Shown here in pieces: positions 5,095 through 52,240 of a stretch of 64,000 nucleotides of DNA. This stretch comes from an uncultured virus (IMG/VR IMGVR_UViG_3300012259_000001) (taxonomy: Duplodnaviria; Heunggongvirae; Uroviricota; Caudoviricetes): positions 62,001 to 126,000 of IMG/VR virus record IMGVR_UViG_3300012259_000001; one strand, given 5' to 3'. The translations under genes were made by a program, and so were the position numbers. The number at the start of each line of letters is the position of its first letter. Within the stretch, counting starts at the first letter, position 1. The notes beneath the pieces were generated by a model, which did no database searches, had not been told where the DNA came from, and saw only the letters and a program-made list of their open reading frames with translations.

Positions 5095-5131
5095 AAGCTA
5101 GGGAGGGTCGCCCCTCCCTAGCCACCTATGA
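5088..5131. terminator. bidirectional hairpin between convergent genes
   Basis: GCTAGGGAGGG-TCGC-CCCTCCCTAGC flanked by CATAAAA and TATG. Confidence 0.65.
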
Positions 5132-6738: not shown

Positions 6739-6763
6739 AAAAGAAATCGGGTATATATTACCC
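6739..6763 (+). promoter_or_regulatory. phiKZ-type early promoter upstream of chimallin
   Basis: A-rich AAAAGAAAT then TATATTAC at 6754-6761, matching the phiKZ virion-RNAP early consensus. Confidence 0.65.
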
Positions 6764-32618: not shown

Positions 32619-33088
32619 CCGTTAACCCCGAAGACCAAGACAGCCATGTGTTGTTGCCGGGCTTCGGGGCACGGTTTTATAACAAGCCGACCTTGTTGGA
32701 TAAAATCCTTGAGCAAGGAAAGCAGTTGGACAATATAGCGGCGCAGGTGGTGATGCGCGATGCCTACGAAACCCAGTACGGGATTTGTGATCACGGCAGC
32801 CCATCTGCTAACCCCTTGGCGTTGGTTGAGTATCAGCCAAAAGAAGATGTGTCAGAATACGGGACGCTTTACCGAACCTTTTATCAGTACCATCTGTACG
32901 AGGTTCATAAAGAGTGGGGGGTGTCTATTGTGGACTTCCTCAACATGCCCCGCGAGTACTGTGCTTTGATGTTACGAATCTCTTCTGAGAAAGCGGCTCG
33001 CATGACGGCTGAAACTCAAAAGCAAATTCGGGCAGCCCAGCAAGCACAGGCCGCCGCTGGTGTGGGTTTAGGAGGCGCGAAGCGATGA
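32567..33088 (+). CDS. -1 frame extension (gpT/E'-like chaperone half)
   Basis: Track ORF 32648..33088 has a GTG start without an SD; WGVSIVDFLNMP resembles tail-chaperone C-terminal modules. Confidence 0.6.
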   Translation, partial: YPTQPTHLQGTHKVLPLTVNPEDQDSHVLLPGFGARFYNKPTLLDKILEQGKQLDNIAAQVVMRDAYETQYGICDHGSPSANPLALVEYQPKEDVSEYGTLYRTFYQYHLYEVHKEWGVSIVDFLNMPREYCALMLRISSEKAARMTAETQKQIRAAQQAQAAAGVGLGGAKR

Positions 33089-33543
33089 TCGTGTATGAAG
33101 GCGAAGGGTCCTTGTTTGATACCCGGTTGCAAACTATCACAGCCCCGGTTAACACGGTAGGGGTGATGGGGAATGGGTTGGCATTGGCCATGAAACAACG
33201 GGTGCGGGGACTCTTCGACTTCTACAAAGATCTGTGTGACAAGGGTGAATTGAAGGTGGGGCAACCCCAACTGTATAAGATCCCAAAGTCACGTCATCAG
33301 GTCCTATTGTTTCCCACCAAAGCACACTGGAAAAATCCGTCTAAACCAGAGTACGTCATCGAGGGGCTGGATTACCTTGTGGCGAACTATAAAGAGATGG
33401 GGATCACAGAACTGGGGCTTCCGCCTCTGGGTTGTGGTTATGGGGGACTTGATTACATTAAGTTCCTTCGCCCCCTCCTCCATGAGAAATTGACGGACAT
33501 TGACCTTCCCGTCCACATCTACCTGTACAACCGCATCCTTTAA
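33085..33543 (+). CDS. macrodomain protein (DarG/TARG1-like ADP-ribose hydrolase)
   Basis: PVNTVGVMGNGLA, FPTKAHW, PPLGCGYGGL; AGGAGG SD. Confidence 0.88.
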   Translation: MIVYEGEGSLFDTRLQTITAPVNTVGVMGNGLALAMKQRVRGLFDFYKDLCDKGELKVGQPQLYKIPKSRHQVLLFPTKAHWKNPSKPEYVIEGLDYLVANYKEMGITELGLPPLGCGYGGLDYIKFLRPLLHEKLTDIDLPVHIYLYNRIL

Positions 33544-33590: not shown

Positions 33591-33622
33591 AAAAAGTATT
33601 TGAAACCTATATTACCCATAGG
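33591..33622 (+). promoter_or_regulatory. early promoter
   Basis: AAAAA tract then TATATTAC 33608-33615. Confidence 0.7.
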
Positions 33623-33664
33623 CAAGTGATATACTTGTTTAAACGCAACGAGGATTAAGCATCC

Positions 33665-34132
33665 ATGTACGTGTTAGTACGTTGTAAAGTAGACTTTCTA
33701 CAACCCACACCAGAACCCGTTTTACTGAACGCCCCACCCCCATTCCCTTATGCGTTGGCTCGTTCTCAGTTGGGTAACATTGAGTTTATGTGCGAAGTTC
33801 CCGAAGGCTTCAATTCACCCGACTATTTTGTTCACCCAATCGCCACCTCTGGCATCACACCTGAGATGTATCAGGCGATGATGACTCGCTACGTGGGCTG
33901 GGGTTTAAAGCCCCCTCAGCAGTGGTTGGAGAGTCCGTTGCTCAGTCAGGACATCGTCTTCTTTGTAGCCAGCGAAGACTGTCGACCGATTGCAGTGGAG
34001 GTCAGTACCCCCCGTTACGAGAAACTCTTCTTCCCGCATTTCGAAGGGGTCTCGTTAGTCAAAGCCAAGTCCACCACCATGGATGCAGTCCTGCACTATT
34101 GGCCCGATTCGTTCTGTCACCAAAAGCCCTAA
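33665..34132 (+). CDS. hypothetical early protein
   Basis: 155 aa, GAGGA SD, own promoter and terminator. Confidence 0.7.
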   Translation: MYVLVRCKVDFLQPTPEPVLLNAPPPFPYALARSQLGNIEFMCEVPEGFNSPDYFVHPIATSGITPEMYQAMMTRYVGWGLKPPQQWLESPLLSQDIVFFVASEDCRPIAVEVSTPRYEKLFFPHFEGVSLVKAKSTTMDAVLHYWPDSFCHQKP

Positions 34133-34134
34133 GC

Positions 34135-34167
34135 AGCATAAAGCCCTCACCTTCGGGTGAGGGCTTT
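34135..34167. terminator. bidirectional terminator
   Basis: GCATA-AAGCCCTCACC-TTCG-GGTGAGGGCTTT. Confidence 0.75.
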
Positions 34168-34306
34168 AGAGGCTGAAGTCATGGCTGTTTCTCAACAGTC
34201 ACTATACAGGCGCTGGTACTAGGCTGGATGGTGCCTTCTCGGCAGGACCAGACCCCTCAGTGGATCACCTCCTCGTGAGCAATGAATGTTCATTGCCTGT
34301 AGTCAT
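34168..34306 (-). ncRNA. candidate structured small RNA (or minigene) with a 13-nt Shine-Dalgarno mimic
   Basis: Early-type promoter (AAAAAA..GATATTAC, minus 34325-34308), nested stems with GAGA loops, AGGAGGTGATCCA (34273-34261), terminator downstream, no ORF over 24 aa starting at ATG. Confidence 0.5.
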
Positions 34307-34363
34307 AGTAATATCGTACTTTTTTGAACTATACCTTGAATAAACTTAAACTAAGGATGTCAC

Positions 34364-34792
34364 ATGGAGTTTCCCGCTTCTTTGTTGTCGGCATTAGGTT
34401 TCACTGAACCCAAACCTGAACAGCCAGTGGTCTTTATGCGGGCGGGTTGTACGAAAGATTCTCGCGTGCGTCGTGTCAAACCCGAAGGCAGTAACGCCTA
34501 CTTGATCCGGTCGTATCTTGAGAATCCTAAAGACGCATCCCCAACGGCTCGTCGTACCTTTCGCCAAGCGATTGTGTTACGTGATGTGGGAGGCAAACTA
34601 AGACACTACCCTTTGTGGTTGCTGTTCTCAAATTCGCCCACCCGTGAGGTATCGGCTAACAAGCACAACCAACTCCCGCCAGACATACATTGGGTCCGGC
34701 GCAAACGCAAGCAAGTCTGCCTGTACCTTAAAGCGCGTGCCCAAGTGGCTCTCTTAGAACAGATCGACAGTTGTGCAAAACCAAAAACGTAG
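34364..34792 (+). CDS. hypothetical basic protein
   Basis: 142 aa, TAAGGA SD. Confidence 0.65.
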   Translation: MEFPASLLSALGFTEPKPEQPVVFMRAGCTKDSRVRRVKPEGSNAYLIRSYLENPKDASPTARRTFRQAIVLRDVGGKLRHYPLWLLFSNSPTREVSANKHNQLPPDIHWVRRKRKQVCLYLKARAQVALLEQIDSCAKPKT

Positions 34793-38147: not shown

Positions 38148-38203
38148 CGCCCAGTCACTTCGGTGGCTGGGTGTCGAAGGCTTAACTGTTTCTTTTTTTT
38201 TTT
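38148..38203 (+). terminator. intrinsic terminator
   Basis: CCCAGTCAC-TTCG-GTGGCTGGG and a downstream T11 tract. Confidence 0.55.
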
Positions 38204-38216
38204 GGTGAGGTGGGGT

Positions 38217-38672
38217 ATGCGTTCTCTTTTAATCCGAGTAGTTTTCTTGTGTGCGCTATTGCTCCCGAGTCCGCTGTGGGCCACTGACATGATCCGCATG
38301 CCTTCGGCTAATGTAGTCGAAGTCTATGATGGCGATACCTTTAAGGTACAACTGCCTGGGATGTTGGAGGTCTTTGGTCATGAGTTGCCTGTCAGGATCA
38401 ACGGGATAGACACCCCGGAGATTCGCAGCAGTTGCAGTACCGACGTCCTGCGAGCGGCGGAGCGTCACAAAGCAGGCTTGGCTAAAGATTTTCTATTAGG
38501 GGCATTGAGAGGCGGTCAGAAGATCGAACTCCATAACCTTGCCCGAGATAAGTATTTCCGTCTTTTGGCTGATGTCTACATAGACGACATCAATGTAGGA
38601 ACCGCCATGGTTGAACGTGGGCATGCTGTCGCCTATGACGGCGGTACCAAATACGACTGGTGTGGGAAGTAG
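38217..38672 (+). CDS. thermonuclease (SNase) family protein with signal peptide
   Basis: VYDGDTF, VRINGIDTPE, DKYFRLLA, MVERGHAVAY; N-terminal MRSLLIRVVFLCALLLPSPLWA. Confidence 0.88.
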   Translation: MRSLLIRVVFLCALLLPSPLWATDMIRMPSANVVEVYDGDTFKVQLPGMLEVFGHELPVRINGIDTPEIRSSCSTDVLRAAERHKAGLAKDFLLGALRGGQKIELHNLARDKYFRLLADVYIDDINVGTAMVERGHAVAYDGGTKYDWCGK

Positions 38673-43632: not shown

Positions 43633-43684
43633 CGGCATAAAAGTACAGGGAGGCCGAAGCCTCCCTGTATGCCGCCTTTTATGC
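43633..43684. terminator. bidirectional terminator
   Basis: GGCATAAAAG-TACAGGGAGGC-CGAA-GCCTCCCTGTA-TGCCG. Confidence 0.75.
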
Positions 43685-52204: not shown

Positions 52205-52240
52205 TAAAAGCCCATCCTTCGGGATGGGCTTTTATGCCGC
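52205..52240 (+). terminator. intrinsic terminator + TATGCCG
   Basis: AAAAGCCCATCC-TTCG-GGATGGGCTTTT-ATGCCG. Confidence 0.8.

Follow-up and report, generated by a model that had tools for sequence, protein, structure and literature searches.

We analyzed a 64-kb window of DNA (the whole stretch presented here), which is part of a 128,176-bp viral contig of an uncultured virus (IMG/VR record IMGVR_UViG_3300012259_000001), and found that the 231-nt gap between genes 33665-34132 (+) and 34364-34792 (+) is the locus of a structured RNA with a long complement of the 3' end of 16S rRNA. Because the gene products of the phage include a nuclear shell protein of the chimallin type along with multisubunit RNA polymerases and DNA polymerases that are both split, we assign it to the nucleus-forming jumbo phages; its chimallin is less than 30% identical to that of every cultured phage in our collection. 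As judged by sequence comparison, the RNA belongs to a family that spans nucleus-forming jumbo phages, including phiKZ, and in which the stems covary and the 16S-complementary motif is invariant. The size, terminator, and long complement resemble those of the rreB RNA of Bradyrhizobium, but the phage RNA has no open reading frame (ORF), and for these reasons we propose that it is a trans-acting noncoding RNA (ncRNA) of ∼165–170 nt that pairs with the anti-Shine-Dalgarno tail of the host 30S subunit. We give this proposal slightly better than an even chance.

A Structured RNA with a Complement of the 16S rRNA Tail

The complement lies at 34261-34274 on the minus strand and forms 13 Watson-Crick pairs and one G.U pair (at 34274) with nt 1528-1541 of E. 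coli rrsH (L218), whose tail served as a stand-in for that of the host 16S rRNA in all pairing counts. The 13-mer AGGAGGTGATCCA (34273-34261), which the first-pass annotation had described as a perfect complement of the 16S 3' end and which is the best-conserved element of the family, occurs once in the 128-kb contig and pairs with nt 1528-1540. The 14 pairs including the G.U yield a duplex of -25.0 kcal/mol, and the 13-mer alone gives -23.7 kcal/mol against a predicted opening cost of 5.9 kcal/mol. For the 20 nt upstream of the ORFs of the contig, the median duplex with the 16S tail is -6.0 kcal/mol and the best is -16.1 kcal/mol. When shuffled versions of the RNA were paired with the whole 16S rRNA, none of the 30 reached -25.0 kcal/mol and one reached -24.8 kcal/mol. 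No further complementarity to 16S rRNA stood out in the RNA, its second-best helix (-17.3 kcal/mol) being inside the range of the shuffles.

The predicted transcript (34137-34306, minus strand) is ∼165–170 nt long, rather than the ∼140 nt first suggested, with its 3' end in the U-tract past the terminator and a fold z-score of -3.7. It is closed by stem P1, in which UACAGGC (34295-34301) pairs with GCCUGUA (34205-34211). P1 is constant within the window clade and covaries between clades, with both sides altered at four of the seven pairs (GCAAGGC/GCCUUGC in phiKZ, GUCAAGGC/GCCUUGAC in PS119XW). Hairpin P2, GCAAUGA-ACAU-UCAUUGC (GCAATGAA/TTCATTGC; 34279-34296), is found in every clade, and an A:U pair within it is replaced by G:C in Pseudomonas phages (GCAG..CUGC versus GCAA..UUGC in the window; four alignment cells). 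The P4 domain (34221-34255) has an outer helix of GGG/CCU and CUGG/CCAG around the hairpin UGCC-GAGAA-GGCA (34244-34232). Here a C:G pair becomes U:A in L009, G.U exchanges with G:C at two pairs, and the loop-closing pair is C:G in the window and U:A in the sister clade described below; relatives have a GAGA or GUGA loop, and within the window clade the loop is GAGA or GUGA in two sequences and GAGA with one extra base in five. Hairpin P5, CUGUU-GAGA-AACAG (34185-34198), is specific to the window clade and absent from the sister clade; its stem shows U:A changed to C:G in three sequences and one C.A mismatch in L018. The RNA ends in a terminator (34134-34167) made of a GC-rich hairpin (34167-34140) followed by UUUAUGCUG/TTTATGCTG, and two of its pairs are altered on both sides in three sequences. 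RNAalifold, applied to the seven window-clade sequences, returned P1, P2, a weak hairpin around the motif, the P4 domain, P5, and the terminator, with four pairs altered on both sides. The closing stem, the hairpins, the GAGA loops, and all other elements listed in the first-pass annotation are present at the coordinates given there.

Several features favor the minus strand. Among 413 cells, a standard pair is formed only on the minus strand in 14 and only on the plus strand in three, two of which stem from the indel in L008. Read on the minus strand, the P5 loops are GNRA in all seven sequences (GAGA in four, GUGA, GGGA, and GAAA), with the first G and last A fixed, and no known loop family fits the plus-strand reading of this loop. 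The central hairpin of the sister clade likewise keeps G-N-R-A in 7/7 while the second and third positions vary (GUGA, four GGGA, GAGA, and GCGA), and in both hairpins the loop is closed by a Watson-Crick pair. A plus-strand reading, either as a leader of gene 34364 or as a mimic of the 16S tail, fits worse with the wobble pairs, the GNRA loops, and the orientation of the terminator, and was rejected. The original description as a stand-alone minus-strand RNA with its own promoter region and terminator, and with loops that are GNRA only on that strand, thus withstood these comparisons.

Two further observations concern the RNA sequence on the minus strand. An imperfect direct repeat (10/12) links ATGACTACAGGC (34306-34295) at the RNA 5' end with ATGACTTCAGCC (34181-34170) before the terminator. 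In the terminator hairpin, some relatives have the 4-nt loop in one orientation and some in the other (CGAA in three, UUCG in four) on a stem that is the same or covarying, which is a signature of small hairpin-loop inversions.

The Family Extends Across Jumbo Phages

Exact 19-mer searches and protein-anchored searches added five IMG/VR contigs and one metagenome contig to the window, giving a window clade of seven sequences. In this clade, the whole block between the stop codon of the gene upstream and the start codon of the one downstream is nearly constant. The contigs have unrelated genes on the upstream side, and identity of the downstream protein falls to 51–68%. The window RNA is 94% identical to that of L009, compared with 85.5% DNA identity for the chimallin genes of the same genomes and 71% at their third codon positions. 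A covariance model (R1) recovered one full copy per record in 6/6 window-clade records; the extra R1 matches are ordinary terminators, and a second copy in the genome was therefore rejected.

A sister clade, whose chimallin is 48% identical, was reached through a chimallin alignment, and seven of its eight contigs (the eighth is a 47-kb fragment) contain a diverged homologue with the same P1 and P2, a GCU-GNRA-AGC hairpin, a terminator, and AAGGGGGUGAUCCAGCC. These loci encode none of the proteins that neighbor the RNA in the window. We built a core covariance model (R2) from the two clades and first searched nine records, in which it matched phiKZ at 212845-212971 (30.0 bits) and 201phi2-1 at 229017-229147 (23.7 bits); a later search added PhiPA3 (22.9 bits) and Viktualia (22.5 bits). 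The PS119XW element did not reach E 0.01 with R2, yet it aligns by blastn and by eye. By blastn, the phiKZ element is found in at least 57 Pseudomonas phage records, and nearly all of the matches listed have no annotated feature there. R2 and the alignments recover the features that define the family, namely P1, P2, AGGRGGUGAUCC between P2 and the hairpin domain, and the terminator. The neighbors of the locus differ from clade to clade.

The stretch AGGRGGUGAUCC is constant in all 18 model-aligned members and in PS119XW, and both of its flanks are variable: the preceding linker is GCUCACG, GYYCGCA, CACUUUA, or CAUACG according to clade, and the 3' flank is also clade-specific. Within the stretch, A is exchanged for G at one position only, and because its partner in the 16S tail is a U, pairing is retained as a wobble. 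Against the last 18 nt of rrsH, the complement extends to 17–18 contiguous pairs with one or two wobbles in the sister clade, phiKZ, 201phi2-1, PhiPA3, and PS119XW; the energies of these extended duplexes are about -27 to -34 kcal/mol, and the extension is always in register with the 16S tail.

The first-pass annotation had named covariation in related phages, conservation of the Shine-Dalgarno (SD) mimic and stems, and a search of Rfam as checks. Nine of the 15 core pairs are altered on both sides, in 25 cells, 96.3% of core cells are paired (83.3% in shuffles and 23–49% in slid controls), and none of 500 shuffles equaled the observed covariation score, all of these figures being an upper view because the alignment was fitted to the model and so favors the structure that was counted. 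In the window and six homologous loci, no Rfam family reached its gathering score. No tRNA or tmRNA genes were found. Weak Rfam matches to CC2171 and Thr-leader were set aside, as only the motif and terminator were aligned.

These data bear on the possibility that the motif is a chance 13-mer in an intergenic region with ordinary hairpins. The motif by itself is common: IMG/VR contains at least 120 copies of the 14-mer AGGAGGTGATCCAC, and of those 120 copies 11 precede a start codon and an ORF of at least 50 codons and 109 do not. In addition, with the whole 16S rRNA allowed as a target, one of the 30 shuffles fell only 0.2 kcal/mol short of the observed energy. The bare motif is thus not rare at the scale of the database, and it is the lack of any variation in the motif, within an RNA that covaries and in phages that are distant from one another, that goes beyond chance. 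The motif is unchanged in every family member, across phages whose chimallins fall below 30–50% identity, and the stems around it are supported by covariation; we consider chance a very improbable explanation.

A different possibility is that the structure and conserved stretch of the RNA serve a nonribosomal partner, which may be a second RNA or a protein of the phage or the host, and that the 16S match is a by-product. The sequences of P1 and P2 are also highly conserved, the 5' domain could be a protein platform, a basic 142-aa protein is always the divergent neighbor in the window clade, and a scan this large should turn up a few conserved RNAs that match by chance. However, the clades lengthen the complement in both directions, in register with the 16S tail, to 17–18 pairs; the sole internal change is compatible with wobble pairing; the rest of the RNA matches 16S rRNA no better than shuffles do; and the 142-aa neighbor is absent from the sister-clade loci. 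Two points make a decoy of the Csr/Rsm type unlikely: most clades have lost the GGA core (GGGGG), and the RNA has only one site. A nonribosomal partner as the main explanation strikes us as distinctly unlikely.

Some further sites deserve mention. A motif in FLC9 at 66126 was not counted, as it lies inside the annotated coding sequence (CDS) gp64 and scores only 9.4 bits with R2. Goslar (NC_048170.1, 87200-87412, minus strand; L257/L268) has an intergenic AGGAGGTGATCC (motif at 87361-87372) with a hairpin before it and a hairpin and TTTATGCC terminator after it; it is family-like by eye and unmatched by R2. In three genera of Pseudomonas phages (loci phiKZ 212768-213117, PS119XW 211930-212197, and PhiPA3 216186-216446), the RNA adjoins a gp203-type gene, annotated as a DarB-like antirestriction protein or a DEAD/DEAH helicase. 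This gene is divergent in phiKZ and PS119XW, and in PhiPA3 it is co-oriented, with the RNA upstream.

Absence of a Conserved Reading Frame and Comparison with rre RNAs

We examined the RNA for coding potential. As previously noted for ATG, none of ATG, GTG, and TTG is present at SD spacing after the motif in the window; the only start-like codon is CTG, 7 nt past GGAGG. In three of six representatives, no ATG, GTG, TTG, or CTG occurs 3–15 nt after GGRGG. The 13-codon frame opened by this CUG (34260-34258) is not kept in L008, which has gained 1 nt, or in L009, which has lost 1 nt. Where the window has CUG, phiKZ has GUC, and the sister clade, 201phi2-1, PhiPA3, and PS119XW have GCC.

The first-pass annotation also pointed to a 13-codon minigene, MTTGNEHSLLTRR, and suggested that it might stall ribosomes. 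The minigene exists in the window clade, but it is not conserved elsewhere and we rejected it as a functional element: the sister clade has ATG TTG TGA or ATG TAG, phiKZ has ATG ATA TAG, and in 201phi2-1 the nearest ATG is in another frame. A stalling role is not supported, as in other clades the ATG is followed by a stop after one to three codons or stands in a different frame. Two annotated or predicted frames lie inside the RNA in cultured phages, a 29-codon CDS in Viktualia (PV037725.1, 5522-5611) and sORF26 in phiKZ (212866-212889); both are probably spurious, because the frame is not conserved. At the level of sequence, no start codon or reading frame is conserved in the family.

The closest parallel is with the rre RNAs of Alphaproteobacteria. 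The rreB RNA of Bradyrhizobium is 165 nt long and over 17 nt is perfectly complementary to the 3' end of 16S rRNA; it cosediments with 30S subunits, and this cosedimentation depends on the 5' extension of the SD (PMC5711450). The long SD hinders rather than aids translation of the 14-codon ORF of rreB (PMC5711450), and analogues (rreR and others) are reported in several alphaproteobacterial orders (PMC5711450, Hahn et al. 2016). The phage RNAs share with rreB and rreR a size of ∼165 nt, a stand-alone nature, and a terminator; the 16- to 17-nt rre complement overshoots the canonical SD on both sides. Relative to the rre complement of at least 16 nt, and with the E. coli tail as stand-in, the window has 13 Watson-Crick pairs and one G.U, and the other clades have 17–18 pairs with one or two wobbles. 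The rre RNAs differ in having a conserved ORF of 14 or 18 codons that starts with GTG (or ATG) at the last complementary base; the phage family has CUG, GCC, or GUC there, in frames broken by indels. The phage RNAs, which come from jumbo phages, further depart from the rre RNAs in their fold, with its P1/P2 junction and GNRA hairpin, in the one or two wobbles of their complement, and in the lack of a conserved start or frame.

We therefore weighed whether the phage RNA is a tiny mRNA of the rreB/rreR kind, in which the long SD loads ribosomes onto a short peptide from a noncanonical start and either the act of translation or the peptide matters. The size, long complement, and terminator are all as in rreB, the CUG of the window sits where rre start codons begin (at the last complementary base) and opens a 13-codon frame, and the weak Rfam match to Caulobacter CC2171 (19.2 bits) has the same motif followed by GUG. 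In contrast, the codon at the place of the CUG is GCC or GUC in other clades, the +1 (L008) and -1 (L009) indels break the frame, stops follow after anywhere from 7 to 37 codons, half of the six representatives lack a start-like codon in the 3–15 nt interval, and the variable region evolves like paired RNA and not like codons. A tiny mRNA is, in our estimate, quite improbable.

The consensus of CC2171 (Rfam RF01867) opens with the same AGGAGGUGAUCCA and has a terminator at its end. The phage RNA falls outside that family: in a search of 401 nt it scored 19.2 bits (E 0.048), below the gathering score of 75, with only the motif and terminator aligned. CC2171 is probably one of the rre-like Caulobacterales RNAs of PMC5711450, and the weak match probably reflects that group.

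Promoter, Terminator, and Timing of Transcription

The promoter region of the RNA (34305-34330, minus strand) contains an A-run, GTAC, GATATTA, and TATG and is kept in 7/7 window-clade sequences. In the first-pass annotation it was considered to have the layout of the early promoters and the RNA was accordingly called early, a view that we have abandoned. The contig has nine early promoters, all on the plus strand, with the consensus AAATAAAAAAATCTCAGATCTATATTAC followed by YCANGTGAATAGGAT; ATATTAC starts at 6755, 33609, 35273, and 52277 in the window, and five more lie in the contig upstream of it. The promoter of the RNA shares ATATTAC alone with this consensus, as 5 of 21 upstream nt match and the A-run is 6 nt closer. 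In L009, from relative G002, ATATTAC is changed to CAATTAC, whereas G002's own early promoters retain CTATATTAC in 8/8. Across the two uncultured clades TATG is kept in 14/14 sequences, and the ATATTAC core is absent from the sister clade. Beyond the nine early promoters, ATATTAC occurs only twice in 256 kb (both strands), a scarcity that looks like avoidance.

GATATTA and TA(T)G are common to the window promoter and to promoter P047 of 201phi2-1. In the 201phi2-1 study, P047 has a transcription start site (TSS) at 229019, mapped by ONT-cappable-seq, and is classed as middle by the authors (De Smet laboratory and coworkers 2024, PMC11512511). In phiKZ, an A-rich run followed by a TACT motif characterizes middle promoters (PMC8244752), and late promoters have T(-3)ATG(+1) (PMC7598289). 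By homology, the 5' end of the window RNA would lie at 34302-34306, and the RNA would belong to the middle rather than the early phase.

The terminator module (hairpin, T-run, ATGC/T) occurs 15 times in the contig, and 11 of these lie 3–15 nt past a co-oriented gene in a crude gene set. The module of the RNA points along the minus strand, and no minus-strand protein gene precedes it. Each terminator of this kind combines a GC-rich hairpin, whose loop has 4 nt, with a following (T)TTATGCC/TG, for example at 5097-5122 (-), 43644-43669 (-), and 52206-52233 (+). The TATG of the terminator may double as a late-type restart promoter, and a restart after the terminator of the RNA may give an antisense transcript of the early gene 33665-34132.

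Published transcript maps include one member of the family. The 201phi2-1 homologue (R2 23.7 bits, with the same P1, P2, and motif) corresponds to transcription unit TU063, which is sRNA006 (229019-229201, 182 nt) and is listed as "5'UTR derived" (UTR, untranslated region); the listing gives no function, structure, conservation, or 16S complementarity, and the main text of the paper has no mention of sRNA006, gp305, Shine-Dalgarno, or ribosomes (PMC11512511). In phiKZ, published maps place a transcription termination site, T095, at 213001 (+), just past the element (PMC10914365). By differential RNA sequencing (dRNA-seq) of early infection, PHIKZ204 has its early TSS at 213078, beyond the two hairpins of the element (PMC8244752). 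Contigs of the public RNA runs X15, X17, and X19 cover 34136-34403, 34216-34457, and 34203-34665 at a depth of 3–6, with strand and ends not shown, and X18 covers 33622-33838 only. Low-depth contigs that cross the locus fit DNA carry-over or plus-strand read-through rather than a discrete RNA, and they neither show nor exclude a discrete RNA.

These maps raise the possibility that the element is a cis-acting leader or attenuator, in which element and terminator govern read-through and the SD-like stretch is a ribosome standby site or a switch arm. Such a role would account for the terminated TU063 and the read-through unit TU064 into gp305 in 201phi2-1, where the authors regard the RNA as 5' UTR derived (PMC11512511), for the position of the PhiPA3 element directly upstream of the co-oriented DarB-like gene, and for the RNA-library contigs that bridge the element and gene 34364 in the window. 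However, the window clade has nothing co-oriented after the RNA, only the antisense of gene 33665-34132, and the phiKZ element is trailed by two hairpins and then by a separate early promoter with its TSS at 213078; a cis role is thus not general. Moreover, the adjoining genes vary between clades, and 14 structure cells turn into mismatches on the plus strand of the window. We regard a cis-acting element as an unlikely account of the family.

A Proposed Trans-Acting RNA on the 30S Subunit

In the mechanism that we propose, phage RNA polymerase would transcribe the RNA off the minus strand, probably in the middle phase, and would stop at a standard phage terminator. The RNA would fold into a P1-closed junction with the P2 hairpin and a GNRA-loop hairpin, and the purine-rich AGGRGGUGAUCC(A) would be displayed between P2 and the GNRA domain, from where it could pair with the last 13–18 nt of the host 16S rRNA on free 30S subunits. 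Binding to the 30S subunit is what we infer by analogy with rreB. Such binding would compete with the SD sites of mRNAs and may damp or redirect initiation once middle transcription begins; its consequence may be that of a decoy, a shut-off, a tether, a recruitment device, or a protective element.

Several points weigh against this proposal. Predicted folds leave the motif incompletely exposed (mean unpaired probability 0.38–0.56), part of it being paired internally. The last pairs of the extended versions would need the base of the 16S terminal hairpin to be opened. The genes of the phage carry ordinary SD sites (a 4-nt SD core in 74 of 157 crude ORFs, and AGGAG-like sites in all upstream regions inspected, in every class), so a global anti-SD blocker would harm the phage too, and a titrating decoy would have to be very abundant. 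On the side of transcription, the 201phi2-1 unit TU064 reads through into gp305 (PMC11512511), which differs from the window RNA, with no co-oriented gene after it; this read-through and the PhiPA3 placement upstream of a co-oriented gene make a cis role possible in some phages. Among the rows searched, the supplement of PMC10914365 has no phiKZ TSS or ncRNA candidate at the element, and the early dRNA-seq data have no TSS at its 5' end (PMC8244752). The X15, X17, and X19 RNA-library contigs run past the predicted 5' end into the neighboring gene. Finally, R2 found no match in FLC9, LucasX, Xoo-sp14, RTH11, Goslar, or RAY, in a search with stricter filters that is no proof of absence, and the covariation figures carry the caveat given above.

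Relation to Known RNAs and Ribosome-Targeting Factors

Two known systems resemble the proposed trans-acting RNA in part. Val-tRF of Haloferax volcanii is a small ncRNA that binds the small subunit and competes with mRNA; it differs in being a cellular tRNA fragment that, according to the authors, does not act via SD/anti-SD pairing (PMC5711459). Early ribosome-associated factors of phiKZ, such as PHIKZ014, are a precedent for the targeting of host ribosomes by a nucleus-forming jumbo phage, but they are proteins and are mostly on the 50S subunit (PMC10914614). The terms "non-coding," "ncRNA," and "sRNA" are absent from the main text of that paper.

In PAK_P3, an unrelated, non-jumbo Pseudomonas phage, an 80-nt "5'UTR-derived" RNA (85937-86017, plus strand) is listed upstream of the tRNA region and contains GAGGAGGTGATCCAGC (Table S7, PMC10914365). 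This sequence is a 15-nt complement of the 16S tail, which suggests that the device may recur in other phage small RNAs.

Full-text literature searches listed no described phage RNA that pairs with the 16S tail; a text search for the motif itself was swamped by the 16S primer. The same full-text searches and the papers cited here gave no description of the family, its spread among chimalliviruses, its structure, its ORF-less nature, or its invariant 16S complement. Already known are one member, as an uncharacterized transcript, and, from Alphaproteobacteria, RNAs with an overlong SD that stick to 30S subunits.

Genomic Setting

Most genes on the window contig are on the plus strand, and the sequence 3' of the RNA is the antisense of gene 33665-34132, with no co-oriented gene. 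On the other side, 34364-34792 (+) encodes a basic 142-aa protein of no known family, which is the divergent neighbor of the RNA in all seven window-clade sequences. It gave no Pfam or PHROG family, no homologue among phage records, and no usable Atlas match, and its AlphaFold model (pLDDT 57) was too poor for a structure search. It was rejected as a partner protein of the RNA, being absent beside the sister-clade RNAs. A macro-domain protein (33085-33543, plus strand) and a staphylococcal-nuclease-like protein (38163-38672, plus strand) are also encoded near the RNA.

Possible Implications for Phage Takeover of Translation

At least 57 deposited genomes of Pseudomonas phages contain this intergenic element without annotation, and the proposal gives a lead to its function; it also connects the element with the rre RNAs of Alphaproteobacteria, which are themselves poorly understood. 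Genetic and antisense-oligomer tools exist for phiKZ, PhiPA3, and 201phi2-1, all of them cultured model phages, and the transcript ends of one member are mapped, so that the idea is directly testable. A broader reading, to which we give somewhat less than an even chance, is that nucleus-forming jumbo phages, with phiKZ at one end and uncultured lineages from wastewater at the other, share a dedicated ribosome-targeting RNA, which would be the first virus-encoded RNA known to anneal to the anti-SD tail and would seize or reprogram the 30S subunit from mid-infection. The RNA would then be, with the same tentativeness, a counterpart of the ribosome-binding proteins of the phage. Phage takeover of translation is known through proteins; takeover by an RNA, through pairing with the functional sequence that is best conserved in the ribosome, would, if true, be a new route, and such an RNA would provide a natural template for RNA tools against the 30S subunit.

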